From the NCBI GenBank assembly GCA_000999025.1, contig LCFM01000002.1, positions 436 through 64,435 on the forward strand: a stretch of DNA of 64,000 nt. Reading direction: 5' to 3'. Within the stretch, counting starts at the first letter, position 1. Every line of letters begins with the position of its first letter. The translations under genes and the position numbers were made by a program. This DNA is from Parcubacteria group bacterium GW2011_GWA2_43_13. Its GTDB lineage: Bacteria > Patescibacteriota > Patescibacteriia > UBA9629 > GWA2-43-13. A model generated the notes under the pieces. It ran no database searches and was not told where the DNA came from. It saw only the letters and a list, made by a program, of their open reading frames with translations. Below are positions 7,170 through 60,300 of this stretch, one piece after another.

Positions 7170-7226
7170 AGAATGAATACCTCACCCCCCGTCATTCCGC
7201 ATTCAGCTCCAGACGGGGCAGGCCTA

Positions 7227-7333: not shown

Positions 7334-7344
7334 GGGAGGAGGTG

Positions 7345-8532: not shown

Positions 8533-8611
8533 ATTACCTCAAAAATTGTTCGAAAAAATTTCCTCGAGGTTTGGCATTTTCTGCTCAAAAGAGCATTCAG
8601 CGACAGTCCCA

Positions 8612-9007: not shown

Positions 9008-9027
9008 GTAAGGAATACCTCCCTGTA

Positions 9028-9050
9028 TCCCATCCTTGATAAGGAGAGGG
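9028..9050. repeat. family-B palindrome (degenerate) between map and ruvX
   Basis: cccatccttgataaggagaggg. Confidence 0.45.
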
Positions 9051-9061
9051 CGAGGGGTGGT

Positions 9062-9835: not shown

Positions 9836-9908
9836 AACGGAGAAATGACACATTTCAAATAAAATTCGAATACCACATACGGTGTTAATAACTATGTTGA
9901 CTTTTTCA

Positions 9909-10484
9909 TTACTCCAGCCCCAACTCTTTTACAATATCTTGATGAACCTTTTCTTGCTCCTGATAACCATCAATAAACACTGTTTTGCAATTGCGCGCAA
10001 AATAATCAATCGCCGGTTTTACTGACGAATAAAAATGATCAATACGATGCTGGATTGTCTCTGGCGTATCATCATTTCTGTGACGATCCTCAAGCCGCTT
10101 GCGCGCGACATCTTCGGGAATCTCTATCGCCAATACAACGACATGTGATATCCCCAGCCGTTGCATCATATCCAACGCATCCTGAGCTTGTGTCTCCCTG
10201 CGTGCATATCCGTCAATAATAATCTTGTCGTGATTCTGAAGAAGATCGCGCAATGCCTCTTCTACCAAAGGCGTGGTTTCGGAATCTTCCATGTGAATGC
10301 CTTTTTCCAAGCGTTCACTAATGGAATGGCCGCGAGGAGAATCTTCCGTAGCAATTGTGCGAAATATTTTTCCAACTTCAATAGAGGCAAACCCATACCG
10401 TTGCTGTAATAATTCTCCTTGAGTACCTTTGCCCGAACCGGCAATCCCCATTAAAAAAATAATAAAAGCATCATTATGTGTCAT
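9909..10484 (-). CDS. adk: adenylate kinase
   Basis: Start at MTHNDAF. Has the P-loop GIAGSGKGTQ. Confidence 0.9.
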   Translation of the reverse strand: MTHNDAFIIFLMGIAGSGKGTQGELLQQRYGFASIEVGKIFRTIATEDSPRGHSISERLEKGIHMEDSETTPLVEEALRDLLQNHDKIIIDGYARRETQAQDALDMMQRLGISHVVVLAIEIPEDVARKRLEDRHRNDDTPETIQHRIDHFYSSVKPAIDYFARNCKTVFIDGYQEQEKVHQDIVKELGLE

Positions 10485-10561
10485 AAAAAAATCTCGGTTC
10501 TTTCCGCAACGCGAATGGAAAGAGAGTACCGAGAAAAATATCATTCACGTAGAAAAAAATC

Positions 10562-11866
10562 CTATGCATCGTATGAATAACTATGGTACGCCATTTGTGC
10601 CTCAACCTTTTTCATTGATTCGATTATAACAGACACCACAATCAAAAGCGAGGTTCCGCCAATCACAAGGTTAAATCCGGTAAATGATTGCACCAATAAC
10701 GGCAAAATAGCGATAATCCCCAAAAACACTGACCCAGCAAGTAAAATCCTGTTTACCACTGCCTGCATATACACTTCGGTCTCTTTGCCCGGCCTGATTC
10801 CCGGGATAAAACTCCCTTGCTTTTGAAGATTTTCCGCTATCTGACGCGGTTGGAAAATAATGGCAGTATAAAAATAGGTGAATGCCACCACTAATACGAA
10901 ATAAATAATACCGTACGGAAGCCCGCCTTGCTGGAATATATTAATGATAAATCCTGCCACGTCCGCAACCCATGGAGATGTCGCGCGCACAAAAAATTGC
11001 GCAATAAACGGGGGAAACAACACCACTGATATGGCAAAGATAATCGGAATCACTCCTGCCATGTTCACGCGCAAAGGAAGATAATTCTGCGCGCCTGACA
11101 TCAACCGTCCGCCGCGCATTTGACGCGCGTGGGCAATGGGGACATTGCGCTGGCCTTCTGTAATAAACACCACCCCGGCGACAACAATAACCGCGATCAC
11201 GAGCAATAACACGTAATTCGTCAATGACGCAGGGTTGTTTGAAATATCCAAACCGATTTGAAATGCGGCTTGCGGAAGGCTGGCGATAATTCCGGCGAAA
11301 ATCAATAAGGAAATGCCGTTTCCCAAACTGCGTTCCGAAATAATCTCACCGATCCACATAAGTAAAACCGTACCAGCCATGACTGTGATAATTGTAGTTA
11401 CCCATGTTATAGGCGTAAACTGATCAAGAAACTGCGAAGCAGATCCCGCACCCGAGCTTGCCCGACTCAAAAAAATAATAGTGCTATATCCTTGCAATGC
11501 GGCTAACGGAACTGTTAACAACCGCGTCCATTTATTGATAATACGTTGCCCTCGCTCTCCTTCTTTTGATAAATCCTCAAAATAGGGAACAATCATGCCG
11601 AGTAATTGAAAAATGATAGATGACGTAATATACGGGCCCACGCCAAGCATGACAATAGAAAAGTTCTCAAGCCCGCCACCGGTTAAAAGATTTAAAAGCC
11701 CCAACACTTGATTTCCTGATAAAGACGCGCGCAATGCAGTAGTATCAATGCCTGGAACAGGAATATGCGCAAGAAACCGAAACGCGACAAGCATCAGCAA
11801 TACAAAAATCAAATCATTGCGCAACTGTTTGGTGGTGAGAAATTGTTTAAATCGGGTTGAAAATGA
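10562..11866 (-). CDS. secY: preprotein translocase subunit SecY
   Basis: 10 TM helices, with a start at MSFSTRFKQF. Sits in the conserved position after rplO. Confidence 0.9.
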   Translation of the reverse strand, partial: SFSTRFKQFLTTKQLRNDLIFVLLMLVAFRFLAHIPVPGIDTTALRASLSGNQVLGLLNLLTGGGLENFSIVMLGVGPYITSSIIFQLLGMIVPYFEDLSKEGERGQRIINKWTRLLTVPLAALQGYSTIIFLSRASSGAGSASQFLDQFTPITWVTTIITVMAGTVLLMWIGEIISERSLGNGISLLIFAGIIASLPQAAFQIGLDISNNPASLTNYVLLLVIAVIVVAGVVFITEGQRNVPIAHARQMRGGRLMSGAQNYLPLRVNMAGVIPIIFAISVVLFPPFIAQFFVRATSPWVADVAGFIINIFQQGGLPYGIIYFVLVVAFTYFYTAIIFQPRQIAENLQKQGSFIPGIRPGKETEVYMQAVVNRILLAGSVFLGIIAILPLLVQSFTGFNLVIGGTSLLIVVSVIIESMKKVEAQMAYHSYSYDA

Positions 11867-12007
11867 CATACGATGAGGGTGTAGTAATATCTCTACGTCA
11901 TCTGAGTTCGCTCGCTGGCGGACGAAGAATCTCGTATAGAGCAAACTAAGAGGGGCCCTTCGTCTCCGCCAGCTGGCGAATCCTTAGGATGACAAAAACA
12001 AACAAGG

Positions 12008-12514
12008 TTATGCTTTCTTTTTCTGGCGCTCTGCTTTCGGCAAAACATTGCGGACTTTTTCGTGTACAACAAGTTCAATAGTACCTCCTGCTTGTTCAAT
12101 ACTCTTTCTCGCTGTTTCAGAGACCTTTTCCAATTTAACTGTCAGTGATTTTGAAAGCGCTCCTCTTCCTAAACATTTTACACCTAAAGAGGATTTTTTG
12201 ACGATACCTTTCTGTATCAAAGCAACTCTATCAACAACAGCGCCTTTTTCAAACAACTGATTGAGGTCGCCAACATTGATAATATCAAAATGCGGCTGAA
12301 GGGAACGAAAACCTCGCAGTTTAGGTATTTTTGATAAAAACTGATCTTTTAACGCTCTGCGCTTCAAGCCACTCTTTCCGCCCGCGCGAGAGCGCTGGCC
12401 TTTCATGCCTCTGCCTGAATATGATCCTTTGCCTGAAGCATTGCCACGTCCAACACGCTTGCTTTTTGAATGCGAGCCAGATGCCGAATGTAATGTGTGT
12501 AATGTGAGTGACAT
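12008..12514 (-). CDS. rplO: 50S ribosomal protein L15
   Basis: N-terminal Gly/Arg-rich KRVGRGNASGKG. Confidence 0.9.
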   Translation of the reverse strand: MSLTLHTLHSASGSHSKSKRVGRGNASGKGSYSGRGMKGQRSRAGGKSGLKRRALKDQFLSKIPKLRGFRSLQPHFDIINVGDLNQLFEKGAVVDRVALIQKGIVKKSSLGVKCLGRGALSKSLTVKLEKVSETARKSIEQAGGTIELVVHEKVRNVLPKAERQKKKA

Positions 12515-12564
12515 AATGTATAACTTACGAACTGATGAGCCTACGAACCCATAAACCGATAAAC

Positions 12565-13254
12565 TTATAAACTCTTTTGTTCTTCAGGTTTACGATTCTT
12601 CGATTCTTGCATTTTCCGTGGTTTATTCGATCGAGACGATGGTTTTCTTGGGCCAGGTTTTTGCGCACGCTGGGCCTCACGTTCTGTCTGTTCTTTCAAT
12701 ATCCGTTCACGCTCCGCTTTTCTCCCCTCAACCATCTTTTTATGTGAATCTATTTGGCGTTGCATATGAGCCGGAACTTCATCGCGCAATGACTCAAGCG
12801 CTCGAATAGTGGCATGGACATTATTCAATTTATTATTCGATCCTAAAATTTTACCAACAACATTTTCCACGCCTGCTAATATAAGCACGGTCCGAACAGC
12901 GCCACCCGCAATAACGCCGGTCCCTAATGCCGCAGGTTTTAACAACACTTTTGCCGCTTTGAATTTCATAGATACGGCATGCGGAATTGTTCCGCCTGCC
13001 ACATGAATAGAAATCATATTCTTCCGCGCGGCAGATGCGGCTTTACTGATAGCTAATTGAACATCAGCGCCTTTTGCCGTGCCCATTCCAATACGGCCGG
13101 CTTTATCACCAAGCACAACACACGCGCGAAAACGCATACGTTTCCCTCCTGCCATAACACGCGTAACACGAGCGAGGTCAATAATCGCTTGGTCAAAATC
13201 ATGCTGTTGTTCTTGTCGTGGTCTCATATCTCTCACGAGGTTCGAATCCGCCAA
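12565..13254 (-). CDS. rpsE: 30S ribosomal protein S5 with a long basic C-terminal extension
   Basis: S5 core plus about 65 extra Lys/Arg/Glu-rich C-terminal residues. Confidence 0.9.
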   Translation of the reverse strand: MADSNLVRDMRPRQEQQHDFDQAIIDLARVTRVMAGGKRMRFRACVVLGDKAGRIGMGTAKGADVQLAISKAASAARKNMISIHVAGGTIPHAVSMKFKAAKVLLKPAALGTGVIAGGAVRTVLILAGVENVVGKILGSNNKLNNVHATIRALESLRDEVPAHMQRQIDSHKKMVEGRKAERERILKEQTEREAQRAQKPGPRKPSSRSNKPRKMQESKNRKPEEQKSL

Positions 13255-13295
13255 CCGACGGACAAAATTCGAAACTATTACATAATAGGATTACA

Positions 13296-13643
13296 TTAAA
13301 ACTCTAATCCTGCTGATCGCGCCGCTTCGGCAACCGCTTTCACACGGCCATGATACGCATATCCTCCCCGATCACACACAATGGTGATTATCTTTTTCTC
13401 TTGCGCTTTTTGAGCGATCTCTTTCCCTACCATCTCGGCCTGTTCAAGTTTTGTGCCTTTTTTCAATCCAAGCGTTGATGAAGATGCTATCGTAATCCCG
13501 TTCACGTCATCAACCAATTGCGCGACAATATGGCGAGCACTGCGGAAAATAGAAAGCCGAGGCCGTTCTGACGTGCCTTGTATTCTTGTCCGGATACGCG
13601 CATGGCGCCGGATGCGTGATTGCTGTTTCTTAAGAAGAGTCAT
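13296..13643 (-). CDS. rplR: 50S ribosomal protein L18
   Basis: 115 aa with L18 motifs. Confidence 0.9.
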   Translation of the reverse strand: MTLLKKQQSRIRRHARIRTRIQGTSERPRLSIFRSARHIVAQLVDDVNGITIASSSTLGLKKGTKLEQAEMVGKEIAQKAQEKKIITIVCDRGGYAYHGRVKAVAEAARSAGLEF

Positions 13644-13652
13644 ACAAAAATA

Positions 13653-14204
13653 TTATCCGCCTGACTTCACTTGTTTACCGGCTTTTCTGCGGATGATTTC
13701 ATCGCTATACTTAATTCCCTTGCCTTTATACGGCTCTGGCTTACGCACTTTTCGCACATTCGCGGCAAATTCACCAACTTGTTGCTTATCAATTCCTCGT
13801 ATACTGATAACATTCTTTTCTACTTTCACCTCTACTCCTTGAGGCGGAACCATAATCACAGGATGAGAAAATCCAACCGAAAGAGTAAGTGTGCCACTAT
13901 CAATATTGGCGCGGTATCCGACACCATTGATTTCCAATTGTTTTGAAAATCCTTCTGTAACGCCACACACCATATTTGCCGCAAGAGCCCGACTCAACCC
14001 CCAAAACGCACGCTCGCTTTTTTCTTCAGGATGAGCAACCGAAATCTCGAGCTGTTTTTCAGCATCGTTATACACCATAATCGCCTTTGACGGCATTGTT
14101 TGTGTTAATTCTCCCAACGGACCTTTCACACTCAAAACAGAACCATGTATAGAAATAGTTACGTTTGCTGGAATAGTAATGGGAAGTTTTCCTATACGTG
14201 ACAT
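13653..14204 (-). CDS. rplF: 50S ribosomal protein L6
   Basis: 183 aa with the tandem L6 domains. Confidence 0.9.
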   Translation of the reverse strand: MSRIGKLPITIPANVTISIHGSVLSVKGPLGELTQTMPSKAIMVYNDAEKQLEISVAHPEEKSERAFWGLSRALAANMVCGVTEGFSKQLEINGVGYRANIDSGTLTLSVGFSHPVIMVPPQGVEVKVEKNVISIRGIDKQQVGEFAANVRKVRKPEPYKGKGIKYSDEIIRRKAGKQVKSGG

Positions 14205-14234
14205 ACTATTAAATTAAAATGTAAATTTTATCTT

Positions 14235-14627
14235 TCAATATACTTCACACAACACTTCGCCGCCAACTTGTTCCTGTTGCGCTTTTTTATTTGTCATAAG
14301 ACCTTTGGGTGTTGAAATAACAGCTATTCCCAAATCATTCAACACTTTAGGCATATTTTTATATGAACGATATACCCTCTGCCCAGGCGTGCTTATTCGC
14401 TTAATCGTTGTTATACGCGGCGCATGTCCTTGATATTTCAGATCAACCACCAATGCCGATTTTATCCCCTCTGTCTCAATGCTCACACCGCCAACATACC
14501 CCTCTTCTTCGAGAATACGGGCAATCTCCTTTTTCATGCGAGAATAAGGAATCAAAACCGACCGTTTTTTAGCGGCTTGTGCGTTGCGAATACGCGTTAA
14601 CATGTCTGCTATTGGGTCTGTCATCAT
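14235..14627 (-). CDS. rpsH: 30S ribosomal protein S8
   Basis: 130 aa, starting MMTDPIADMLTRIRNA. Confidence 0.9.
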   Translation of the reverse strand: MMTDPIADMLTRIRNAQAAKKRSVLIPYSRMKKEIARILEEEGYVGGVSIETEGIKSALVVDLKYQGHAPRITTIKRISTPGQRVYRSYKNMPKVLNDLGIAVISTPKGLMTNKKAQQEQVGGEVLCEVY

Positions 14628-14715
14628 ACACTAAGTTAAAAAGCAAAAAGTAAAAAGTTAAAGATGTATATCAGCCGTTATTTTTGACTTTTGCTCTTTC
14701 ATTTTTGATCTTTAG

Positions 14716-14901
14716 TTACCAGCTACTACTTTTCACTCCAGGAATTTCTCCTTTACAAGCAAGCTCACGAAAACAAATACGACACAAGCCAAACACACGC
14801 ATATACCCGTGATTTCTTCCGCATCTCCAACACCTCCGCACAATGCGGGTAGAAAATTTAGGTTTCCGTTTTGACTTTGCGATACGTGCTTTTGTTGCCA
14901 T
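14716..14901 (-). CDS. rpsZ: 30S ribosomal protein S14 type Z (zinc-binding)
   Basis: 61 aa with CxxC...CxxC. Confidence 0.9.
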
Positions 14902-14917
14902 ATTACGAATGAGAGTG

Positions 14918-14995
14918 CGATACTAATACACGGATTCATGCGAATGACGCGAATATTCGTGTCATTCGTGTGCCATTCGTATATTAGCATCGCAT
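14918..14995. repeat. 78-bp repeat, copy A, filling the rplE-rpsZ spacer
   Basis: cgatactaatacacggattcatgcgaatgacgcgaatattcgtgtcattcgtgtgccattcgtatattagcatcgcat. Near-identical to 15893..15969. Starts directly after the rplE stop codon. Confidence 0.8.
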
Positions 14996-14997
14996 GT

Positions 14998-15558
14998 TTA
15001 GAGTTTCTCTTTTACAAACGGCATTCCAAATTCCCGATACAACGCAAGTGCATGATCACGATTCTGCGCTTGTACTGAGATTGTTATTTGTAATCCATGC
15101 GTATGCTCAACAGTATCAGGATTCACTTCAGGAAACACATAATGCTCGGAAAGCCCTATTGAAAGGTTCCCACTCTGATCAACGGATGTCATGGGAATGC
15201 CACGAAAATCACGCACGCGAGGTAAGGTAATATGAACCAACCTCTCAAGGAAATCATACATTCTGCGTCCACGCAAGGTTACCATCATACCGACAACGCT
15301 TCCTTCTCTCAATTTAAATCCTGCTATTGATTGCCGAGCTTTTGTTTCAACCGGTTTTTGGCCAGAAATCCGAACCAGCGTTTCTTTTACCGTATCAACC
15401 GCTTTCTGATCTTTTGACATCTTCCCAATACCAACATTAAGGGTAATTTTTTTCACCCAAGGCACTGCTAAAACATTTGAAAGGCCTAATTCGTCTTTCA
15501 ACTTTTTCACTATAATGGTATCAAAATTTTTCTTCAGATTGTTCATACGTCGGTTCAT
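14998..15558 (-). CDS. rplE: 50S ribosomal protein L5
   Basis: 186 aa with the L5 signature. Confidence 0.9.
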   Translation of the reverse strand: MNRRMNNLKKNFDTIIVKKLKDELGLSNVLAVPWVKKITLNVGIGKMSKDQKAVDTVKETLVRISGQKPVETKARQSIAGFKLREGSVVGMMVTLRGRRMYDFLERLVHITLPRVRDFRGIPMTSVDQSGNLSIGLSEHYVFPEVNPDTVEHTHGLQITISVQAQNRDHALALYREFGMPFVKEKL

Positions 15559-30819: not shown

Positions 30820-30827
30820 ACTAATAT

Positions 30828-30900
30828 CGGGGTGTGGCGCAGCTGGTAGCGCGCATGCATGGGGTGCATGAGGCCGCCCGTTCAAGTCGGGTCACCCCGA
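30828..30900 (+). tRNA. tRNA-Pro (anticodon GGG)
   Basis: Acceptor cggggtg/caccccg, D-stem gcgc/gcgc, anticodon stem catgc/gcatg with loop atggggt (U33, GGG, G37), T-arm gcccg-ttcaagt-cgggt, discriminator A. No encoded CCA. Confidence 0.85.
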
Positions 30901-30962
30901 TACTGCATCTTAACAACACACATACAAAACGCATACAGTGTGATACACTCTAATTATTCATT

Positions 30963-33026: not shown

Positions 33027-33087
33027 GAAAATACCTTAATTGTTTCGTATTATTCTTCGAGAGCTTCGAATTTCGTATTTTAAAACT

Positions 33088-34545
33088 ATGGCCCTCCATG
33101 ACGAAATCACAACCCGAAAAAACCAGCTCGCAAAAATCCGCGAATGTGGTATCCATCCGTATCCTGAAAAATATCCCAAAGATAAAGCAATGGCTGATAT
33201 TCTTTCGTTAAAAGAAGGCGAGCAAATCTCAACCGCGGGTCGCATTACTTCAATCCGCACAATGGGCAAAATCACGTTTTGCCATATTTCAGATATAAGC
33301 GGAAAAATTCAAATCGTTATTCAAGAAGATACAATCGGAAAAGATGTGTACAAGCAATTTCATGATATCTATTCAATTGGCGATTTTATCGGTGCGAGTG
33401 GAGAACTCTTTACAACAAAAAGTGGCGAACTTTCAATCAAAGCAACTTCCACGACATTTTTAGGCAAAGCGCTGTTACCGTTGCCGGAAAAATGGGCAGG
33501 GCTCAAAGACACAGAAACCAAATACCGCCAACGCTATCTTGACCTGATTGCAAATCCGGAAAGTAAAAAACTCTTTTTATTCCGCAGTAATGTCATTAAG
33601 GCGGTGCGGGAATTTTACTGGCGCAATGGGTTTCAAGAAGTGGAAACACCAACATTATTGCATGTCGCAACCGGCGCTGTGGCAAACCCATACAAAACGC
33701 ATCATACTGCCCTTAATCAGGATTTATTTTTGCGCATCTCACACGAGTTGCCGTTAAAAGAACTCATTGTCGGAGGATTTGAAAAAATTTTTGAAATAGG
33801 AAAAGCATTCCGCAACGAAGGTATTGATCCATCTCATCTTCCTGAACACACACATCTTGAACATTACTCCGCGTACTGGAATTTTGAAGACAATATCGCG
33901 TTTACGGAAAAAATGTTTTCGTATTTGTTTGAAACATTAGGGATCGCTCAAACGCTTGTCATGGATAGCGGAGTTGAAGTTCAGCTCAAACAGCCATGGC
34001 CGAGATATAACTTTGTGGAATTGATCAAAGAAAAAACAGGCATTGATGTTTTAGCGTATGAAGCGGCAGATACCTTGCGATCGGACATTAAGAAAAAAAA
34101 TATTTCCTTTGATGGAATTGATCAGATGTCGCTTGCAGGATTGATGGATAATCTGTATAAAAAAATTGTGCGCCCGACACTTATCAATCCAACATTTTTG
34201 ACAACTTATCCTGAAATCTTACAGCCACTCGCGCGCAGAAACGATGAAAATCAAAATGTAGTAGATCAATTCCAGCTTGTTATCAATGGCTGGGAAGTGG
34301 TAAAGGCGTACAGCGAATTGGTTGACCCAATAGATCAACAGCAACGGTTTGCGCAACAATCAGAACATAAAGAGCAGGGTGAAATTGAAGTCATGGAGGG
34401 TGATGATGAATATATCACCTCTATGAAACACGGCATGCCGCCGATTTCCGGACTTGGCATGGGGCTGGATCGCCTTGTCGCGCTGTTATCCGGCAATTCC
34501 AACCTCCGTGACGTTGTGCTGTTCCCATTATTGAGGAAAAAGTAA
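33088..34545 (+). CDS. lysS: lysyl-tRNA synthetase (class II)
   Basis: Start at MALHDEITTRK. Has an OB anticodon-binding domain and class II motifs (FRNEG, GLGMGLDRL). Confidence 0.95.
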   Translation: MALHDEITTRKNQLAKIRECGIHPYPEKYPKDKAMADILSLKEGEQISTAGRITSIRTMGKITFCHISDISGKIQIVIQEDTIGKDVYKQFHDIYSIGDFIGASGELFTTKSGELSIKATSTTFLGKALLPLPEKWAGLKDTETKYRQRYLDLIANPESKKLFLFRSNVIKAVREFYWRNGFQEVETPTLLHVATGAVANPYKTHHTALNQDLFLRISHELPLKELIVGGFEKIFEIGKAFRNEGIDPSHLPEHTHLEHYSAYWNFEDNIAFTEKMFSYLFETLGIAQTLVMDSGVEVQLKQPWPRYNFVELIKEKTGIDVLAYEAADTLRSDIKKKNISFDGIDQMSLAGLMDNLYKKIVRPTLINPTFLTTYPEILQPLARRNDENQNVVDQFQLVINGWEVVKAYSELVDPIDQQQRFAQQSEHKEQGEIEVMEGDDEYITSMKHGMPPISGLGMGLDRLVALLSGNSNLRDVVLFPLLRKK

Positions 34546-34591
34546 AAAAACAGGAGCGAAACGTTCTTCGCTCCTTGTTCTACTCAAACAC

Positions 34592-35179
34592 CTATTGCGC
34601 ACATCCCCTCATGTTGAGGAAATTTCGCAAAAGAAGTTTGCCATGTTCAGTCAGTATTGCCTCAGGATGAAACTGAACTCCGTACACCGGCAATGTGCGA
34701 TGCGCGACCCCCATGATCTCGCCATCGTCTGTTGACTCGGCGGTGACGCGCAGAGAACCGACAGGAAATTCCGCCCTATCAATCACCAAAGAGTGATACC
34801 GACATGCGGTAAACTTGTTTGGGATGCCCGCAAACACGCCGGTCCCATCATGCTTGATGATAGATGTCTTGCCATGCATGAGGCGCGTGGCACGAACGAT
34901 CGTACCCCCAAACACAACGCCAATCGCCTGATGACCAAGGCACACCCCCAGTACCGGAGTACCTTGATCCCCAAATGCGCGAATGGCATCAATAGAAACA
35001 CCGGCCTCTTTGGGAGTGCATGGTCCCGGAGACACGACGACATGAGATGGCCCCATGAGCAAAAGCTCACCTACCCCCAAGAGGTTATTGCGGACAACCG
35101 TAACATCACCACCCATCTCCCCAAGATACTGAACGAGGTTATAGGTGAATGAATCAAAATTGTCGATTATCAGGATCAC
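34592..35179 (-). CDS. trpG: glutamine amidotransferase component II of anthranilate/aminodeoxychorismate synthase
   Basis: Starts MILIIDNFDSFTYNLVQY. Catalytic Cys is in GVCLGHQ, with the His/Glu triad. Confidence 0.85.
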   Translation of the reverse strand: MILIIDNFDSFTYNLVQYLGEMGGDVTVVRNNLLGVGELLLMGPSHVVVSPGPCTPKEAGVSIDAIRAFGDQGTPVLGVCLGHQAIGVVFGGTIVRATRLMHGKTSIIKHDGTGVFAGIPNKFTACRYHSLVIDRAEFPVGSLRVTAESTDDGEIMGVAHRTLPVYGVQFHPEAILTEHGKLLLRNFLNMRGCAQ

Positions 35180-35184
35180 GGTTG

Positions 35185-36669
35185 CTATCCCTCCAATCCG
35201 TTATGCGCATAAGCAAGCGCGCGGAACATCCCGCCTGCTTTCCGCAAACACTCATCATGCTCACGAGCAGGGTCAGAATCCGCAACAATCCCAGCGCCTA
35301 CTTGCCAGGATATGGAGTCCTTCGTCACCACTGCCATGCGAATCGCAATAGCGACATCAAAATGCCCGTTAGGATTTACCCAACCAACAACACCGCCGTA
35401 AGGGCCGCGACGCGTTACCTCCAATTCATCAATGATCTCCATCGCGCGCACTTTCGGAGCTCCAGAGAGCGTGCCTATGGGGAAAGTGGCACGAAATGCG
35501 TCAAACTGAGAACACGTTGATCTCATCGTGCCTTCAACCGTCGAGGAAAGATGCATCACAGTCGAGTATCGTTCAACTTCCATGAAACGCGTTACTCGAA
35601 CAGTACCCGAGACGCATACCCTGCCAAGATCGTTTCTGCTAAGATCCACAAGCATGACGTGCTCTGCTTGTTCTTTTAGATCTTGTCGAAGTTCTTGAGC
35701 AAGGTATTCATCTTCTTCTGGAGTTAATCCGCGACGCCGTGTTCCCGCAAGCGGTCGCGTGATGATATCTGCCCCTGCCACGCGGATAAGCATTTCAGGA
35801 GAAGATCCGACCAGAGCACATTCTCCGCAATTCAAGAAAAAGAGGTACGGAGAAGGATTCACGCTTCGCAACGCCCGATAGAGCTGAAACGCCGACATAG
35901 TTCGCGGGACTGACAAGCGCTGTGAAAGCACTACCTGAATCACATCGCCTGCGCTAATGTAGTCCTTTGCCCGACGCACAGAATGCTCAAACTCCGATTG
36001 AGAGACCGTTGACACAGCAGACGGAAGCATCCCATGCCCGGCGCGAACTTCACAGGTTCTCTCCTCTTGAAGAAACGAGCATGTTGTATTGATACACTCA
36101 ACCGCACTGGCATACGAACCATCAACGCCTTCTCTTAAAGGGTCAGCGAATGCGACAACCGACATGGTATGTCGCACATGGTCAAACACCACGACTGTTT
36201 TCATTGTCATGAAAAAACAGTCGGCCAACCCGAGATCATCAACCGGTGCGTTTGGCAGATGTTCGATGTATCGAACCATGTCATACCCAAAGTACCCCAC
36301 ACTCGCTCCAATAAAACGAGGCAGTGAAGGAATTGACGCGCATCGGGATGCGTTGATGAACAATTCACATTCGCGGATTGGATCCACCGCCGAGAAGGTT
36401 TGAACCAACCCAGAAGTGTTGTCATGAATCGTAACGCGATTGTCCTTTGAGGAGAACGTCCGGATGGGATCCACTCCAATGCATGAATAGCGGCCCAGCC
36501 GTTCGCCACCTTCGACTGATTCAAGAAGAAACCCGCGACGCACATCGCCACCAAGGCGGAAAAACGCCGAAACCGGAGTAATGGTATCTGCTAATATTTC
36601 ATGCACAACTGGGATTCTCACCCCGGTATGTGCCTGTGCGACTGCTCGAAAATCAGCTAACGTTTGCAC
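35185..36669 (-). CDS. trpE: anthranilate synthase component I (or PabB)
   Basis: Chorismate-binding domain (GAPKVRAMEIIDELE, RGPYGGVVGW). Start chosen at the GTG with an AAGGAG SD. The upstream T-box-like leader with a UGG-containing loop favours TrpE. GC is elevated versus flanks. Confidence 0.8.
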   Translation of the reverse strand: MQTLADFRAVAQAHTGVRIPVVHEILADTITPVSAFFRLGGDVRRGFLLESVEGGERLGRYSCIGVDPIRTFSSKDNRVTIHDNTSGLVQTFSAVDPIRECELFINASRCASIPSLPRFIGASVGYFGYDMVRYIEHLPNAPVDDLGLADCFFMTMKTVVVFDHVRHTMSVVAFADPLREGVDGSYASAVECINTTCSFLQEERTCEVRAGHGMLPSAVSTVSQSEFEHSVRRAKDYISAGDVIQVVLSQRLSVPRTMSAFQLYRALRSVNPSPYLFFLNCGECALVGSSPEMLIRVAGADIITRPLAGTRRRGLTPEEDEYLAQELRQDLKEQAEHVMLVDLSRNDLGRVCVSGTVRVTRFMEVERYSTVMHLSSTVEGTMRSTCSQFDAFRATFPIGTLSGAPKVRAMEIIDELEVTRRGPYGGVVGWVNPNGHFDVAIAIRMAVVTKDSISWQVGAGIVADSDPAREHDECLRKAGGMFRALAYAHNGLEG

Positions 36670-37085
36670 TTTCTTGCTCCTTTGCAAGATGCGCGAGTTG
36701 AGTTGTGAGAAAGAACGACGCACGAGGAGAAACAAAAAACCCCTCATCCTTATGCGTATCAAAAAATACGCAACAAGGACGAAGGGTCTTCTTTATTTTT
36801 TAACAAAAAAGAGACACTCCGCGGTGCCACCTTGGTTCCTATCAATATATATCATTGACATTGATAGGCACTTTTCGTGTACTCCTTTGCGGGATATACA
36901 ATATCCTATGGTAACGGAGGAAACCGGATTATGCTACAATCATAGCTGATTTTCGCATAACCATCTGGCCTGGTCCATCGATACCGCATAAGTGAGAAGT
37001 CCTTTCAGCCCATGAGACCTCCTCTCTTGCACTCTTGCTATGGCATCTATTCCAAGCTCTTAACGATGTTGACATTGTTAATGAA
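36670..37085 (-). ncRNA. candidate T-box riboswitch-like leader (tRNA-Trp type?) upstream of trpE
   Basis: On the minus strand: AACCAAGGTGGCACCGCGG (13/13 match to the T-box core GGUGGNACCGCGG), an F-box-like CCGUUA, a stem-III-like hairpin cctatcaat...attgatagg, an AGUA motif, and UGG in a predicted loop. The terminator/antiterminator geometry is non-canonical: a T-tract follows 8 nt after the T-box, and a larger hairpin plus T-tract lies at about 36720-36790. Confidence 0.45.
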
Positions 37086-37092
37086 CACTATA

Positions 37093-37121
37093 AGTATATA
37101 GTATCATTTCATTTTTGTCAA
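37093..37121 (-). promoter_or_regulatory. strong sigma70-like promoter TTGACA-17-TATACT driving the trpE leader
   Basis: Consensus -35, a 17-nt spacer, and a near-consensus -10. Confidence 0.6.
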
Positions 37122-37131
37122 ATGCAATCAA

Positions 37132-37175
37132 AAAAAGCAACACCCTCTCGGGGCGGTTGCGCCCGAAAGAGGGTG
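37132..37175 (-). terminator. intrinsic terminator (minus strand) ending an upstream small transcript
   Basis: caccctctttcgggcgcaaccgccccgagagggtg, then ttgcttttttt. Confidence 0.6.
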
Positions 37176-37375
37176 TGCTTAGTGACCATGGTGTACCATA
37201 TACCCTTGGTGCCTTACTCAAGAAGCGTAATGTGCCCCCCAATGATAATCGGTCTCTTGCGAGACGCGTGGATCCGCACTCACACTCCGCAGAGTATAAG
37301 TATAAAGATCGTTGTTAGGAGACGTTATAGAACACTTTTTACACTCCCCTTGTAAAGCACTTTTATTATAGCAAA
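37176..37375 (-). ncRNA. candidate ~230-nt small RNA between an extended -10 promoter (TGcTATAAT at about 37365) and the terminator at 37132..37175
   Basis: No ORF above 10 codons with an SD. Contains a GNRA-type hairpin gtctc-gcaa-gagac. Confidence 0.3.
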
Positions 37376-37497
37376 ATAGAGATTAAAAGAAAATGAATAA
37401 CCTTGCCATTGTGTGCAAAATAAAAACAGGGTTATTAAAAAAACAGAGGTTATGCGTATAACTTCCGTTCAAAGTCATTTGCATAACCCTTCTGTCT

Positions 37498-37713
37498 TCA
37501 ATTGAAGACAATCTCCGTCCCTTCGGGGTAACGCTCTACCCAATCTTTCCCTAAATGCGTCCGAACAAATTCTTCAAAGGTAACGATATCGTCACCGACG
37601 TCATTATCACCGACGTCATCGTCACCGATGTCATCGTCCTCAACGACCAAAGATGATGCTGGAGGATCGGGGAAAACAAGCGTCCTCCCTCTAACACACA
37701 CACGTACAGGCAT
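37498..37713 (-). CDS. small highly acidic protein (71 aa) with internal 15-bp tandem repeats
   Basis: Good SD (AGGAGAGGGAG 7 nt before the ATG). Encodes DDDIGDDDVGDNDVGDD from about 3.5 copies of gtcaccgacgtcatc. Has its own terminator at about 37440-37495. Confidence 0.5.
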   Translation of the reverse strand: MPVRVCVRGRTLVFPDPPASSLVVEDDDIGDDDVGDNDVGDDIVTFEEFVRTHLGKDWVERYPEGTEIVFN

Positions 37714-37887
37714 ACTCCCTCTCCTAAAAGAACGATGTTCTCCATCAAAAAATCCCGCTGTTCGCGCGGGGTCCTTGATGTGAACTGAATGATTCCGTGG
37801 CTATGCTCACCATCAAAGATCCCGCGTCATGCGAGATTTTGCATTGGTGTTAAATTGGTAAAAAAAACCAATATTCATAGCCATTGT

Positions 37888-37936
37888 GTATTTTTAATCA
37901 TATTCTCATTTTTGTCAACCATTTTTGTGTGGATAA
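37888..37936 (-). promoter_or_regulatory. minus-strand promoter (TTGACA-17-TAAAAAT) abutted upstream by a consensus DnaA box TTATCCACA
   Basis: Plus strand reads ttgtcaac-N8-tgtggataa, identical in architecture to 38486..38529. Drives ORF 37498..37713 through a leader with a terminator-like hairpin. Confidence 0.45.
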
Positions 37937-37951
37937 ACAACCTCACTCTAA

Positions 37952-37985
37952 CCCCCTCCTTTATCAAGGAGGGGGTAGGGGGCGG
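37952..37985. repeat. family-B palindrome
   Basis: ccccctcctttatcaaggaggggg. Confidence 0.55.
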
Positions 37986-38094
37986 TAAAAAAACAGGGTA
38001 AGAACGTTGTCTCACCCTTGCGCATGGAGGATCACTCAATACGGTTTGCCCTTATAAAAGAGGGATTACCTCTCCCAAGAGCGTTGGTTAAAAG

Positions 38095-38603: not shown

Positions 38604-39197
38604 TTAAAACATAATATCCTCTTCTGCCCGCTTATACTGGTGAATCTCTTCCGGCCCAAACCATAAATGGATTTCATTATCCGCTTCTGCCTGCGTTTCA
38701 GAAGCATGCACAATATTTTTAATTGCTCTGCTTTCAAGATTTGCAACTGCCGGCGAATCAACGCTGAAATCGCCGCGAATAGTTCCCATTTCAGCAAACA
38801 CAGGTAAGGAATGGCCAACTAATTTGCGCACCATATCAATCGCGTGTATGCCCTGCACAACCATTGCCACAATCGGACCTGATGACAGGTATTCAAATAA
38901 AAGTTCTTTCACCTTCGTACCTATTTCCATTTTATTATCAGTCCCCTGCGCCGCAATAGGATCAATATTGTATTCAGTAAATGTCTTTAAGGTTTTTTCT
39001 CCAAGCCGCTCAACCCATGCAGGATCAGAGGGCAAATGTTTTTCAAGATGGTTACGATCCACCCATACCATTTTCATGGCAATAATTTTCAAACCACGCC
39101 GCTCAATACGACTCAAAATTTCCCCAATCAACCCACGCTTTACACCGTCCGGCTTTACAAGGACAAGCGTCATTTCTTGTTTCATTTTCTGATGCAT
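38604..39197 (-). CDS. ndk: nucleoside diphosphate kinase (long form)
   Basis: LVLVKPDGVKRGLIGEI...NIVHASE has the NDK catalytic His context. Confidence 0.8.
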   Translation of the reverse strand: MHQKMKQEMTLVLVKPDGVKRGLIGEILSRIERRGLKIIAMKMVWVDRNHLEKHLPSDPAWVERLGEKTLKTFTEYNIDPIAAQGTDNKMEIGTKVKELLFEYLSSGPIVAMVVQGIHAIDMVRKLVGHSLPVFAEMGTIRGDFSVDSPAVANLESRAIKNIVHASETQAEADNEIHLWFGPEEIHQYKRAEEDIMF

Positions 39198-39679: not shown

Positions 39680-40591
39680 TTAAAATTCACCAATAAAATG
39701 GGTACGAAGCGCGTATGTTCTTCCGTCTGACGCAAACGTAACATCGCCATCGATGTCTGTTCTATACACAACGCTTCCGGCTTGATTCAGCGTAAGGAGC
39801 GTACGCGCGTTGGGATGGCCAAAGGAATTATCACGGCCTACCATTATGACAGCAATTTCCGGTTGTGCTTGGGTGATAAATTCTTTACTCGAAGATGTTT
39901 TACTGCCATGATGCGCGACTTTTAACACATCAATATCAGGAATAAGGTTATTCGCCAAAAGTTGGGACTCAGTATCTGCCGATATATCGCCGGTAAATAA
40001 AAATTCGTGTTCGCCATATCGTAATAATGCAACAACTGATCCTTCATTTGCATCAGGTAAATGCAATGTATCAACTGCCATAGAAATCGGCCATAAGAGT
40101 TCTAATGACACGCCGTCTTCGAGGATCATTGTACGCTGTGAAGAAACAAAACTCACTGGAATATGAAACTCGCTAACCTTTTTCGTAAATGCCTCCCACT
40201 CAGGACTACTGTAAGGAATATCTGATGTAATCAATTGCTTGATAGCGTATCGCTCGGCAACATCTAAAAATCCGGCGAAATGATCTGTTTGCGGATGCGT
40301 GATGATGGCAAGATCAATCGTGCGATCATAAAACGGAAGCGCTTTTCCTAACTTTTGAACGACTGTGCCCGTGGGCCCTGCGTCAATTAAAATTGTGTGG
40401 TTTCGCGGTGTCCGAATCAGCGTGCTATCCCCTTGTCCAATATCTAAAAAACTAACGATGAGATGATTTTTCTCGCGCGATGATTGAAAAAGAAATATCA
40501 ATAAAAAAACCTCAACAACACCAATGATGATCAGTAAAAAAATCAGTTTCTTTTTTAAACAGTTACTCTTCCTCATACACCTTACACCCAT
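39680..40591 (-). CDS. comEC: ComEC C-terminal metallo-beta-lactamase domain protein (split ComEC)
   Basis: N-terminal TM, then an MBL fold (DIGQGDSTLI...HPQTDHFAG). Confidence 0.75.
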   Translation of the reverse strand: MGVRCMRKSNCLKKKLIFLLIIIGVVEVFLLIFLFQSSREKNHLIVSFLDIGQGDSTLIRTPRNHTILIDAGPTGTVVQKLGKALPFYDRTIDLAIITHPQTDHFAGFLDVAERYAIKQLITSDIPYSSPEWEAFTKKVSEFHIPVSFVSSQRTMILEDGVSLELLWPISMAVDTLHLPDANEGSVVALLRYGEHEFLFTGDISADTESQLLANNLIPDIDVLKVAHHGSKTSSSKEFITQAQPEIAVIMVGRDNSFGHPNARTLLTLNQAGSVVYRTDIDGDVTFASDGRTYALRTHFIGEF

Positions 40592-40610
40592 TATTCACTT
40601 TACTTGCACC

Positions 40611-40650
40611 CTGTTTTACTTTTTTCACGGCCATGAAAAAAGTAAAACAG
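40611..40650. repeat. family-F 40-bp palindrome between the two comEC fragments
   Basis: ctgttttacttttttcacggccatgaaaaaagtaaaacag. Confidence 0.6.
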
Positions 40651-40657
40651 TATAGTG

Positions 40658-42205
40658 TTATGCAGATACTTTTATACTTTGAATATCCTGCATCATGCCG
40701 AACCTGCGATTTCTTCTTTTACGCATAGATAGCGCATACACACCCCAGCAAAGAAGCACATAACTTATCATCATCCATGGCCATGAAAACCATTCAATAG
40801 ACATACTCGCATATCGCCATGATGAAAAAAATTCAATACTCCGTAAAATATATTCCAATAGTATCCACGCAGGAAACGCGATATACGCAAACGATTGAAC
40901 ATTCAATGGGATACATACCGCAACCGCTGTTACAAGCCCGCCCACTGCCATCACAAAAGGAGTCAGCGGCACCACAAAAAAATTCGCAATAATACTCACC
41001 ACTGAAAGTCGGCCAAACACAAACAATACCAATGGAAGGGTCGCGATGGTCGCGGAAAATGTCGCAACCACAACTTCTTTCATACTATGTATCCATCCAT
41101 GGCCATGTGATTCAAAGAGCGGCGAAATATAAATCAACCCCGCTGTTGCCAAAAATGAAAGCTGAAACCCAACGTCATACCGTAAAATCCACGGATTGAT
41201 TGCAACCATCAACCCGGCTGTAAGCAACAGCGCATTGGTCATTGACTGCGCTCGGCCAATGCTATATGCCAGCGCGCCGATGGCTCCAAATAAAGCCGCG
41301 CGTACTACCGACGCCTGCCCCCCGACAAGGATAACAAACAGTCCAATACACGGAATCATCATCCACAGCGCATGCCTGCGGTTGATCCATATCCATGGCG
41401 CGAGAATCAGCACAAAACGGATCACTATCGTAATATTGTATCCGGAAATCGCAATAATATGCGTCAGGCCTACGCGATTGAATTGTTCCATCACATCATC
41501 GGGTAACCCCTTTTTTGCGCCAACCAACATACCGGCAAGTAAAGAGGCGTGAGGTTCTGGTAATGCGCGGTTGATTGCCTCAAGTAGAGTATGTTTGAAC
41601 GCAAAAAGATATGAAAAAATATTCTTCGGCGCGAAAACGCGTTGTGAGATGTCAGGATAATAACACACTGCGTCAATATTTTTTGCGCGCAAATATTTCT
41701 CATAATCAAACGAATCAAACGCTTGCGGCTTTTGCACAATGCACTCAAACGATAATTCATCATGATATTCATAATATGGATACAATCGTGTTGTTGCTAA
41801 AAGCAATCCGTTAAGCCCATGGACTCGTATCACCAACCGTTGCTTGTCAAGCAATCGTTCCGGCTCGGCAACAATCGTTCCTTTAAAAGATTGTTGCATT
41901 CCAATGCGCGATACAATATGATGATCGCCCGATTGTACCCGAATGACGGAAAACCGCATCATGCCGAAAAATAAAAAGAATGTGCCCACGCTTATTACGA
42001 CCAATATTTTTATCCACCCCCTAGTATAGAATTGATAGGCGATACTCATAACACCCACCGCGATGATACTTCCACCCAATACTCCTACAAGAAGATTGAA
42101 AGAAATACTCCACAGCGTTGCAATGAAAACCCCAAGAATAAAACTTGTAAGCGCTAACCTCAACCACTGATACGGATATAACCTTATCTTTGTTTCGGTC
42201 TTCAT
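40658..42205 (-). CDS. comEC: ComEC/Rec2 competence channel domain protein
   Basis: Multi-TM with GLTHIIAISGYNITIV, the competence-domain signature. Confidence 0.85.
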   Translation of the reverse strand: MKTETKIRLYPYQWLRLALTSFILGVFIATLWSISFNLLVGVLGGSIIAVGVMSIAYQFYTRGWIKILVVISVGTFFLFFGMMRFSVIRVQSGDHHIVSRIGMQQSFKGTIVAEPERLLDKQRLVIRVHGLNGLLLATTRLYPYYEYHDELSFECIVQKPQAFDSFDYEKYLRAKNIDAVCYYPDISQRVFAPKNIFSYLFAFKHTLLEAINRALPEPHASLLAGMLVGAKKGLPDDVMEQFNRVGLTHIIAISGYNITIVIRFVLILAPWIWINRRHALWMMIPCIGLFVILVGGQASVVRAALFGAIGALAYSIGRAQSMTNALLLTAGLMVAINPWILRYDVGFQLSFLATAGLIYISPLFESHGHGWIHSMKEVVVATFSATIATLPLVLFVFGRLSVVSIIANFFVVPLTPFVMAVGGLVTAVAVCIPLNVQSFAYIAFPAWILLEYILRSIEFFSSWRYASMSIEWFSWPWMMISYVLLCWGVYALSMRKRRNRRFGMMQDIQSIKVSA

Positions 42206-57350: not shown

Positions 57351-60300
57351 CTATGGTGAAATAACAACATTAACACACTGATTTTCCTGTTCACTGCCCG
57401 AGGTCGCAGGCCCGGAAGGAATTGTCATCATTGGAGCGTCATCAACCCCTACCCATGTAACGCGCTCAAACTCAAAGTGCGCTTTTATATCAAATCTATC
57501 CTGATCAACATACCGATACTGATACACATATGATTCTGGCTTACACACAAACCGCAATCCAATGAGTTGCGCCTTATTCCAGCACGTTGACTGATCATAC
57601 CCTAAAGGACAATCAAAGAGATTCAACGGATCAACCGGAAAAGCCACGCCAACCTGTCGGCCCAATTCCGTTTGCCATGAATTCCATCTACTGGTTGTAT
57701 GATTCTGCTCAAAACTTCCAGCAGGAACAGGCGGATGCCCTGACGCATTGCTCTCTATCGCGCGGACAATATACGTTACGTCCATCACGCGAAGCGCGTC
57801 TCGCCTGAACCGTTCACGCGTTGATTCTGAAGAAAGATTCGTATTAAAGGTCATGCTGTTTACAAGCGCATTAAACAATTGGACAGTCCGCGGTTGAGCG
57901 CCTTCATTATATGATAAAACAGTTACTGTGGTAAAGGCATTGCTCGTACCGTCGTAATCTGCTGAACGCACATACACGCTTGTTCCGGCCCTCGCCGCAG
58001 GATACCCACCCACATTTGTTTGCTCTGTAATCTTTCCTTGCCCATCTGCTATTGGCAAACTTGCCTCCCGAACCCAGTCATCAAGCGAAAGGCGATCATC
58101 ATTTTTCCCAGTCAAAATAATAATCGCATCCGGCTCTTCCGGCTGTTCTGGATTCGGCACCTGAATATAATGAATATTCGTAAAACGAGGTCTGTCAGGG
58201 ATCTCTGTCTTTATACTCACGCGCACAGGCCATGCCTCTTCTTCCAAATCATCAATACACGCGAATGTTGCGAAGTGGGTCTTTATTCCGCTATGCGGAG
58301 ATCTGACGCGCTCCGACGGTCCATCATCAGTAAGTAAATAATTGGTATTGATTTCATTATACGACTCATCCGTGTCTTTTACGACAAAATGCTGTTTACA
58401 TGACTCAATAGTAAACGGATATTCACCAATAATTTTTGTTTTTGTTTCCGGTTCTGATAATTCAGCAATTATTTTATTAGGGATTGCGCGCGTTGTGCGA
58501 CTTGCGACAACCACAGAATGCTGGCCATTTTGTTCAGATATACGAGCGCCTTGACTTGCAATCGTCCATTTAGCAATAGGCGGAGATGAGAGCGGCTGAT
58601 TGCTTGCGGAAAACGGCACGCCGACAAACAACGCTTGCGTGCCCTCATGAATATGCACCTCTGCAGTATCAGCCACCGTCATCCCGGCGACTTCAGCAGG
58701 GGCCACCTGTATCGTTGCCACGCGACATACAGTCGCGGCTGTGGTAAACGACCACACGCACGCGCCTGCATCATTTGACAAAACTGATCCGCACTTCAAC
58801 GACTCACCGTTGCGCCCCCACGATCCAGACAATAATCCAATCTCATATACCGTTGATGGGGAAAAGAGCTGACCACTCGCTGGCCGTATCTGCAAAAGAC
58901 GGCCATCTATTGTTATTTTTCTTCCTGGCACAGAAGGGTTCATCGCTATGAGAGAATCAACCACTGAAGTAGACGCAATTCCGCGATCAAATACTACTTG
59001 AATCAAGCTATTTGTGCATACTTGCGTTGCTTGATCCAGTGGGGCGATATCCACAATAGTCGGTGGGCCGCTGTCTTCACTCCCTTCATGTTCACACGCC
59101 TTAATACTGCCATACGAATATGACACCTCACACGCGCCTTCATTGCAGAGCAATCCATACTCAACAGAGGTTGCTGAAATAATTACATCTCCCATATCAG
59201 CTGTATCTATGTTCCCATCGCGATTGACATCTTCACGCGGACACCCAACGCCTCCAGAGCATAATGGACTCGTTTTCCCTTCTCCAAAACGGCGCGATAT
59301 ATCAATAACCAATTGCGCGCTCGTTTGATCAATAGAGATCACATGAGGAAGGGGAGATTGCATCTGCAAGCGCAACTCGGTATTCTCTGATGGTTTTTGT
59401 TCAACATCACCAATAACAAATTGAAGAACCTTGGTTACGCCTGATGTTGCGCTGGAAAGAGCAATCATACGGCTGACATCCGAGCCCCCAACCTGCTCAA
59501 ACACTTTCAGATTCGCAACAGGAAAAGCAGAAGGGGAAACATACTTATCAAGCGTAACGGTGAGTGTTGCGCGGCATGTTGTTCCTGCGCGCGCGCCATC
59601 AGCAGTGATAGACACAATCCGTATTTGACGAGCAGGATCAGGGATATCAGAACACTCATCACCTGTACATCCTGATCCTTTAGTTGACAAAACAGCGTCA
59701 ATCGGAGCAGTGGCGTCAATATCACCAATAAATGTCCTCATCATGGCTTCAGAATCTGTTAAGTCCGGAAACGCTTTCAATGCCTGAATCTGAAACCGCT
59801 GACTTGGAGGATGAGGATTGGGATTGGAAACCACATACTCAATGCCATGCACCATAACAAAATCAGCTCTGCGGGAGCTCGGATATGCCGGCTCACCTGA
59901 ATCCTGCGCAAATACAGTAATTGTCGCATCCTCACGCGCGCCTACTTTAAGAGAATACTCGCTTTTATTAAATACAATACCAACAACAGGCGCAGGGCCA
60001 CGCGTTACGGAAAATTGATATGAACACGCTTCAGCATTCAGCCCTTTTGCACGTGAACAATCAAGCACTGCTGTCGGCGCTGTGGTTGTTTTTAATGCAG
60101 ATGTATTCAGCGCGACGTTATACGACGCGTTCAAATCAAAATCAATTGGAGATTCAGTTGCGCTCCCTTTGTTCGCAAGTCGGCGTATACGAATTTTTGA
60201 CGGATCAATAAATTCGATAGCGCTGGACCCGTCAGGATTGCGGCTCAAATTCGCCGCGTCTCCTTGCTTGGTAAGTTGAATCGCATCAGGCGTCGCAGTT

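Follow-up and report, generated by a model that had tools for sequence, protein, structure and literature searches.

T-box riboswitches have been reported in Bacillota, Actinomycetota, Chloroflexota, Deinococcota and a few Proteobacteria, and tryptophan (Trp) T-boxes preceding trpE have been reported in Dehalococcoides and in bacilli (PMC2494555). Here we describe a leader of this type in front of a trpE-trpG pair, on the minus strand of a 64,000-nucleotide (nt) stretch of contig LCFM01000002.1 (positions 436 to 64,435) from Parcubacteria group bacterium GW2011_GWA2_43_13; we refer to this whole stretch as the window. The host, for which source records of identical proteins give the names Parcubacteria group bacterium GW2011_GWA2_43_13 and Candidatus Jacksonbacteria bacterium, belongs to Candidatus Jacksonbacteria (Parcubacteria, candidate phyla radiation, CPR), a reduced lineage found in groundwater, which agrees with a preliminary description of this DNA in which the lineage was taken to be biosynthetically minimal. 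To our knowledge, the CPR and Parcubacteria are regarded as being without amino-acid biosynthesis. Within an incomplete coverage of the literature, we found no work linking a T-box with the CPR, Parcubacteria or Patescibacteria, and the literature searched held nothing informative on the metabolism of Jacksonbacteria. We consider it very probable that the leader is a functional class-I (transcriptional) tRNA-Trp T-box controlling trpE-trpG and that the unit was acquired horizontally.

For comparison, we additionally confirmed Trp T-boxes in front of trpE in Anaerolineae (L039), Caldilineaceae (L011) and Syntrophomonadaceae (L032 and L035). The Jacksonbacteria leader resembles the Trp T-boxes of trpE operons in Bacillota and Chloroflexota in the order of its modules, the position of its UGG, its bulge (UGGC or UGGU in these T-boxes) and the presence of trpE downstream, and it shares with those of Chloroflexota and Syntrophomonadaceae an insertion between the F-box and Stem III. 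It differs from the trpE T-boxes of Bacillota and Chloroflexota in adding a 32-nt capping hairpin to the antiterminator, in controlling trpE and trpG only, and in its CPR host. The four comparison T-boxes score 99-109 bits against the Rfam T-box model and keep a kink-turn (K-turn; UGA...GA), whereas the Jacksonbacteria leader scores 75 bits and has a continuous helix. A 2025 survey found that contiguous T-box arrays before Bacillota trp genes are nearly all doubles (PMC12452182); unlike these, the Jacksonbacteria leader is a single T-box. The staphylococcal glyS T-box (PMC9177973) likewise carries a lineage-specific extra stem (Sa) in its antiterminator/terminator domain, but it differs in amino-acid specificity, host and sequence, and the likeness is architectural only. 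The rtpA (anti-TRAP) T-box of Bacillus subtilis (PMC10327191) raises Trp output by sensing uncharged tRNA-Trp, as the Jacksonbacteria leader would; it controls a regulator protein, whereas the Jacksonbacteria T-box would control enzyme genes directly. The T-box mechanism itself is thus ordinary, being textbook knowledge in Bacillota and known in Chloroflexota, and what is new is the host group together with a minor architectural variation.

The leader was scanned against Rfam family RF00230 by E-value rather than by the gathering score of the family (93), with 4227 families entering the whole-window E-value. The covariance model aligned over its full length (positions 1-219) at 37063..36772 with 75.1 bits (E = 3.4e-16 in a 1.1-kb scan and 2e-14 in the 64-kb window with all families). 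A default gathering-threshold Rfam scan of the window returned only a tRNA and did not report the T-box leader, because the score of the leader lies below the cut-off. Standard annotation would therefore miss this element, and similar T-boxes could be under-counted in candidate phyla. Compared with shuffled sequences, the leader has a folding z-score of -7.1. Its 13-nt T-box core, GGTGGCACCGCGG (36831..36819), is the sole match in the window, against a chance expectation of 0.13. The preliminary description had already reported this core, a consensus promoter about 415 nt 5' of trpE, an F-box-like CCGUUA, a stem-III-like hairpin and a Trp UGG in a predicted stem-I-like loop. Each of these was found again at the place given (Table 1): the promoter lies 417 nt upstream of trpE, the leader modules align to RF00230, and the covariance search that had been proposed as a check gave a full-length match with Stem I and specifier, though at a score below 93.

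The specifier position of the RF00230 alignment holds UGG, the Trp codon, followed by the conserved purine A36974. The distal platform of Stem I (the AGAGA bulge and the distal loop) also aligns to the model, by which contact with the tRNA elbow is predicted. Between the F-box and Stem III, the linker holds a 28-nt insertion relative to RF00230, and a UUCCU loop in Stem IIA could pair with AGGAG (36886..36882) to form the IIB pseudoknot. On the 3' side of the leader, AAGGUGGCACCGCGG contains a 7-nt bulge, UGGCACC (36829..36823), whose UGGC would pair with the GCCA 3' end of a tRNA. In TBDB, Trp T-boxes have C or U at the variable bulge position opposite a G discriminator (PMC7778990). The UGGC of the leader is compatible with the G discriminator of tRNA-Trp. 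Read in other frames, the specifier would be AUG (Met, discriminator A73), which would call for UGGU, or GGA (Gly, U73), which would call for UGGA.

Table 1. Positions of the features of the T-box-trpE-trpG unit and of its immediate surroundings in the window
Feature	Position	Strand	Details
Structured RNA, ~230 nt	37373..37130	minus	directly upstream of T-box promoter; minimum free energy -97 kcal/mol
Extended -10 element TGCTATAAT	37373..37365	minus	promoter of structured RNA
Structured RNA terminator	37176..37140	minus	hairpin then U7
Sigma-70-type promoter TTGACA-17-TATACT	37121..37093	minus	11/12 consensus positions; both hexamers kept in sister lineage (L097)
Stem I	37057..36968	minus	base helix GCUUGG/CCAGGC; RF00230 alignment and RNAalifold pairs
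AGAGA bulge	~37027..37023	minus	in Stem I
Distal loop CAUGGGCUGAAA, 12 nt	37014..37003	minus	in Stem I; ends in UGAAA
Specifier loop AAUA / GAUGGA, 3' side GA-UGG-A	36979..36974	minus	in Stem I; RF00230; identical in L097
Specifier codon UGG (Trp)	36977..36975	minus	RF00230 specifier position
Stem II	36962..36927	minus	GAAA and GUA internal-loop motifs; RF00230 alignment
Stem IIA and F-box	36926..36912	minus	F-box CCGUUA at 36917..36912
Extra hairpin GGAUAU-UGU-AUAUCC	36906..36892	minus	in linker between F-box and Stem III
Stem III	36869..36838	minus	RF00230 alignment and folding
T-box sequence AACCAAGGUGGCACCGCGG	36837..36819	minus	RF00230 alignment
Antiterminator	36833..36775	minus	helix A1 AAGG/CCUU, 7-nt bulge, helix A2 GCGGA/UUCGU; constrained fold -15.0 kcal/mol
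Antiterminator capping hairpin, 32 nt	36817..36786	minus	A/U-rich; from folding
Intrinsic terminator	36791..36734	minus	~26-bp hairpin then U6; RNAfold -36.8 kcal/mol; 100% identical in L097
trpE ribosome-binding site AAGGAG	36682..36677	minus	7 nt 5' of GTG
trpE, anthranilate synthase component I	36669..35185	minus	494 amino acids; GTG start; TIGR00564
trpG, glutamine amidotransferase component II	35179..34592	minus	195 amino acids; TIGR00566
Operon terminator	34575..34543	minus	10-bp stem then T-tract at 34575..34552; directly 3' of trpG
lysS	33040..34545	plus	convergent with end of trpG

The expression platform consists of two competing hairpins. The strand UUCGUCCUU (36783..36775) forms the 3' strand of the antiterminator and also part of the 5' arm of the terminator, and the two structures are predicted by folding to be mutually exclusive, in the canonical arrangement. 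The preliminary description had judged this overlap to be non-canonical, with a U-tract only 8 nt past the T-box. Folding instead reveals the shared strand and assigns this U-tract to the 5' arm of the capping hairpin, which occupies the antiterminator apical loop, where the RF00230 alignment places a 34-nt insertion.

In the mechanism that we propose, RNA polymerase would start transcription near 37086 at the near-consensus sigma-70 promoter, and Stem I would offer its UGG specifier to the anticodon of tRNA-Trp. If the tRNA-Trp is uncharged, its free GCCA end would pair with the UGGC bulge and stabilise the weaker antiterminator (-15 kcal/mol), allowing read-through into trpE-trpG. If it is charged, the stronger terminator (-37 kcal/mol, U6) would form and transcription would end at about 36734, which leaves 65 nt to the start codon. 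In T-boxes it is usual for the antiterminator to be the weaker structure and to prevail only with the help of the tRNA. We infer tRNA binding and control of read-through from family membership.

To assess conservation, we compared the leader with that of a sister lineage (L097, contained in L100), which is the sole source of leader variation. The 363-nt leader differs from its sister at 12 positions (96.7% identity). Half of the substitutions (6/12) lie inside predicted helices, each of them preserving a standard pair (for example G-U to A-U, or C-G to U-G). Pairing is kept at all three substitutions in Stem I of L097, while single A-to-G changes turn a U-A pair into U-G in Stem II and leave a U-G pair in Stem III. 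By comparison, trpE differs at 123/1485 positions (91.7% identical), with 86, 22 and 15 substitutions at codon positions 3, 1 and 2, respectively, so that 17% of third positions have changed. By this pattern, trpE is under purifying selection, and the leader changes about five times more slowly than the nearly neutral third codon positions of trpE.

Several observations weigh against reading the leader as a working tRNA-Trp T-box. Its score of 75.1 bits falls short of the Rfam gathering score. The base of Stem I is without a K-turn, model positions gaUGAa and gGA being deleted and the helix continuous over 6 bp, and the S-turn GAA of the specifier loop is shortened to GA. The match to the discriminator rests on general knowledge rather than on the tRNA-Trp of the host itself, and we found no tRNA-Trp gene in the window or in the flanks fetched. 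Covariation support is weak to modest, with two leader variants only and zero double compensatory changes in the T-box; the weight of the case lies chiefly with the covariance-model match and the architecture. A small hairpin, GGCAC/GUGUC (36828..36813, minus strand), can also form from the T-box bulge region; followed by UCUUUUUU, it is terminator-like and could be a weak early terminator when tRNA is unbound. T-boxes frequently, though not universally, carry a K-turn (GA motif) at the Stem I base, where it is an accessory feature.

The low score and the missing K-turn, together with the 34-nt insertion in the antiterminator loop and the U-tract 8 nt past the T-box, would also be expected of a decayed T-box, a relic without switching that leaves trpE-trpG constitutively terminated or read through. 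The preliminary description had suggested that the element may be a decayed or variant T-box. We regard decay as quite unlikely: all functional modules are present, the alternative helices share a strand canonically, and the insertion folds as a helix extension, comparable to the stem Sa of staphylococcal glyS T-boxes (PMC9177973). Slow evolution of the leader relative to trpE third positions, retention of pairing at every helix substitution and purifying selection on trpE also argue against a relic, and the departure of the earlier account from a fully equipped T-box was not borne out.

A functional T-box would then control an operon of two genes. In the TrpE protein, TIGR00564 (trpE_most, NCBIfam) scores 526.5 bits against a trusted cut-off of 517.7 and is the sole model above its own cut-off, with all PabB, MenF (isochorismate) and Irp9 (salicylate) models falling under theirs. 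TrpG matches TIGR00566 with 220 bits (cut-off 121) as an amidotransferase of the TrpG/PabA type. The trpE stop and the trpG start are 5 nt apart. The operon comprises trpE and trpG only, because a terminator directly follows trpG and lysS converges on it. In certain public gene calls, trpE is 520 amino acids long and starts from an ATG at 36747, which falls within the leader terminator hairpin. The GTG at 36669 is the credible start: an AAGGAG precedes it by 7 nt, and alignments with homologues begin at residue 3-5.

A little less likely than decay is that the pair encodes PabB/PabA (aminodeoxychorismate synthase, of folate synthesis) or another chorismate-utilising enzyme. TrpG and PabA are interchangeable families, the PabB clade-2 model gives the TrpE protein 347 bits, and trpD, trpC, trpF, trpB and trpA are all missing from the window and from about 10 kb on each side. 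The PLAGT motif of the translation also counts for this alternative, as it occurs in Bacillus-type PabB too. However, 347 bits is well under the PabB clade-2 cut-off (408.5), and only TIGR00564 passes its trusted cut-off. The top solved-structure relatives of TrpE are anthranilate synthases, namely the mycobacterial enzymes 7bvd and 5cwa. The translation carries the LLES motif of the feedback site, and the specifier of the leader is a Trp codon. In the choice between TrpE and PabB that the preliminary description had posed, the profile scores favour TrpE.

Neither the 64-kb window nor the roughly 10 kb past each of its ends yielded another trp or aro gene; the absence of further trp genes noted earlier from the window alone extends over these flanks. 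Anthranilate synthase requires chorismate, and the synthesis of tryptophan further requires TrpD, TrpC, TrpF, TrpB and TrpA. Stand-alone trpE-trpG in a reduced genome is also seen in the trpEG plasmids of Buchnera and in the Trp split between Buchnera and Serratia in Cinara cedri (PMC4898801, PMC5054487). In the aphid case, a partner carries out the remaining Trp steps, and Buchnera is without a T-box. The likeness to Jacksonbacteria is a lead only. A tentative possibility, on which we place some but not much weight, is that this is the first T-box recognised in the CPR and that it stands on an orphan anthranilate synthase, the charging of tRNA-Trp gating, in a cell without trpD-A, the anthranilate handed to a host or partner. 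If true, this would resemble the Buchnera/Serratia trpEG split, with the difference that an RNA sensor would regulate the metabolic hand-off. An anthranilate synthase that senses Trp starvation and is under purifying selection offers a handle on what ultra-small groundwater bacteria make or trade.

The unit stands out from its surroundings in composition. The guanine-plus-cytosine (GC) content is 51.6% in trpE and 52.2% in trpG, compared with a mean of 44.5% (standard deviation 2.9) for the other 42 long open reading frames (ORFs; z = 2.4-2.7), in agreement with the markedly higher GC noted earlier. In a 300-nt sliding profile, GC goes up at about 34.5 kb and down at about 36.7 kb. In all, the unit extends over about 34.55-37.40 kb (about 2.8 kb), a GC-rich insert set among housekeeping genes. 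Its TrpE has two alleles (100% and 93%), and the next protein matches are at or below 53%: among 5.8 billion proteins, none had an identity between 53% and 93%, and in the species-representative genomes of GTDB the identity was at most 50%. We screened the regions upstream of lysS (33040..34545), aspS (L098 2423..4225) and hisS (L099 7456..8937) and found no T-box at E <= 0.01, these upstream regions being short. Over the roughly 84 kb examined, no T-box other than that of trpEG was found, and the element does not belong to a broader native regulon.

The sister lineage holds the unit at the same site, between flanks that have diverged by about 20%. The unit is 91.4% nucleotide-identical between the lineages (from window position 35001, where the L100 contig ends inside trpE, to 37399; L100 1..2393), whereas identity is 76-88% in the flanking genes (nucleoside-diphosphate kinase, response regulator, the metallo-beta-lactamase-fold part of ComEC, ComEC and RF). 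At third codon positions, divergence amounts to 0.17 in trpE, compared with 0.28-0.44 in the flanks. The unit is half as diverged as its flanks and therefore coalesces more recently than the surrounding genomes. On the other side, the lower divergence of the unit could partly reflect its differing base composition. Taken as sequence comparisons, these data make it most likely that the unit was acquired horizontally and suggest that it was exchanged recently between two Jacksonbacteria lineages. The locus would then neatly illustrate how a small cassette of a regulatory element and enzyme genes enters CPR lineages and passes between them.

The locus occurs in at least 10 contigs from various groundwater metagenomes and metagenome-assembled genomes (MAGs), produced in different studies with different assemblers, with the same junctions. 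The 828-nt upstream region is 100% identical across these contigs, and nine of them, examined for further leader variants, added none. That the GC-rich trpEG of another organism was wrongly joined to a CPR contig during assembly or binning is highly improbable: composition does jump at both ends, and contig L088, which changes allele at the trpE start, is maybe chimeric, but junctions and the 828-nt leader are identical in 10 contigs, and the unit occupies the same position in the sister lineage despite the diverged flanks there. In L088 (ENA ERZ27254845 k141_1010463, 1..15019), the 9 kb that end at the trpE start codon match the window allele with one mismatch, and the sequence past the start is that of the sister lineage (trpEG about 92% identical, lysS 86%). 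Either this contig recombined naturally, crossing over at the 5' end of trpE, or two strains were co-assembled into a chimera.

The preliminary description had proposed a horizontally acquired, tRNA-Trp-sensing trpEG cassette from a Firmicutes-like donor. The hallmarks of acquisition and the Trp-specific T-box were recovered, while the TrpE protein gave no support for the proposed donor. The nearest TrpE proteins (50-53% identity) are encoded in hisI-trpE-trpG(-trpD...) operons with overlapping start and stop codons and without a leader, on contigs that carry LpxB/LpxK or similar genes, as in Gram-negative-type MAGs. In a neighbour-joining tree of 85 sequences, sampled as the 80 most similar loci, the Jacksonbacteria TrpE formed a long isolated branch; two Planctomycetota were its sister group in 59 of 100 bootstrap replicates, Thermoflexus in 8 and Bacillota in 0. 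A Firmicutes donor was rejected as unsupported by the operon contexts of the nearest homologues and by the bootstraps (0/100). We infer the direction and the donor of transfer, as far as they can be suggested, from sequence comparison; because sampling was limited and neighbour-joining is fragile on such long branches, the donor is left without assignment. The T-box must ultimately derive from a T-box-bearing group.

A second structured RNA lies directly upstream of the T-box promoter, with a putative promoter and terminator of its own (Table 1). When it was compared with the sister lineage by RNAalifold, we found 2 compensatory and 7 one-sided pair-preserving changes and 0 broken pairs. Cassette-level similarity to the sister lineage (about 91%, versus 76-88% in the flanks) begins at 37399/37400, just upstream of the extended -10 element, and the structured RNA thus appears to travel with the T-box-trpEG unit. 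It might be a second regulatory element of the cassette. Apart from noise, it had no Rfam match at E <= 10. We considered it as a tandem T-box or a known small RNA and rejected both, as there was no Rfam match and no convincing antiterminator for its terminator; a Trp leader peptide was rejected as well, since reading the sequence showed no short ORF with Trp codons. Among metagenome contigs scanned by exact pattern, the sister-lineage contig alone gave a match for the structured RNA.

At the ends of the insert, a repeat search aimed at mobile-element ends gave only a pair of similar terminators, and neither inverted repeats nor an integrase. These two terminators bracket the insert (34565..34542 and 38008..37985; ...CAAGG-stem-AACGTT-stem-CCTGTTTTTTTAC) and are 79% identical over 24 nt; the one at 34565..34542 follows trpG, and the one at 38008..37985 belongs to the gene upstream of the insert. 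The pair could be an insertion trace or a duplicated target terminator, or could have arisen by chance. The window also contains a segment of some 460 nt (within 37400..38044) that separates the core genes from the cassette and is absent from L100. A 71-amino-acid acidic ORF (37498..37713, minus strand) is found here on 15-nt tandem repeats (37583..37642, D/V/G-rich), and the segment with this ORF looks like junction debris or a spurious ORF. A second compositional outlier is a 400-amino-acid ORF at 4764..5966 (minus strand), with 58% GC and 66% GC at third codon positions in a 44% GC genome. It matches no Pfam family, and other long ORFs overlap it on either strand; it could be a further foreign gene or not a gene.

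The wider gene neighbourhood fits a CPR genome. It includes a ribosomal-protein cluster, EF-G/EF-Tu, SecY, FtsA/FtsZ, NrdR and a class II-type ribonucleotide reductase, as well as a split ComEC, T4SS-pilin-like giant proteins, DUF5663 and DUF6580. A tRNA-Pro(GGG) on the plus strand (30827..30901) was found by both ARAGORN and the E-value Rfam scan (57.4 bits against a tRNA cut-off of 29); it is absent from the listing of the gathering-threshold scan of the window, which looks like filter loss. The nucleoside-diphosphate kinase (38604..39197, minus strand) contains an insertion of about 45 amino acids that splits its hidden Markov model match into residues 8-47 and 93-193, and its start differs among public gene calls (193 or 197 amino acids). 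ComEC/Rec2 is encoded as two ORFs (39680..42205, minus strand), one of 515 amino acids with DUF4131 and Competence domains and one of 303 amino acids with a metallo-beta-lactamase domain. Two proteins of 1954 and 384 amino acids (57351..63215 and 211..1365, minus strand) are both T4SS-pilin-like at the N-terminus, the larger one adding Big_5 Ig-like repeats; both probably function at the surface or in attachment, as is typical of CPR episymbionts.

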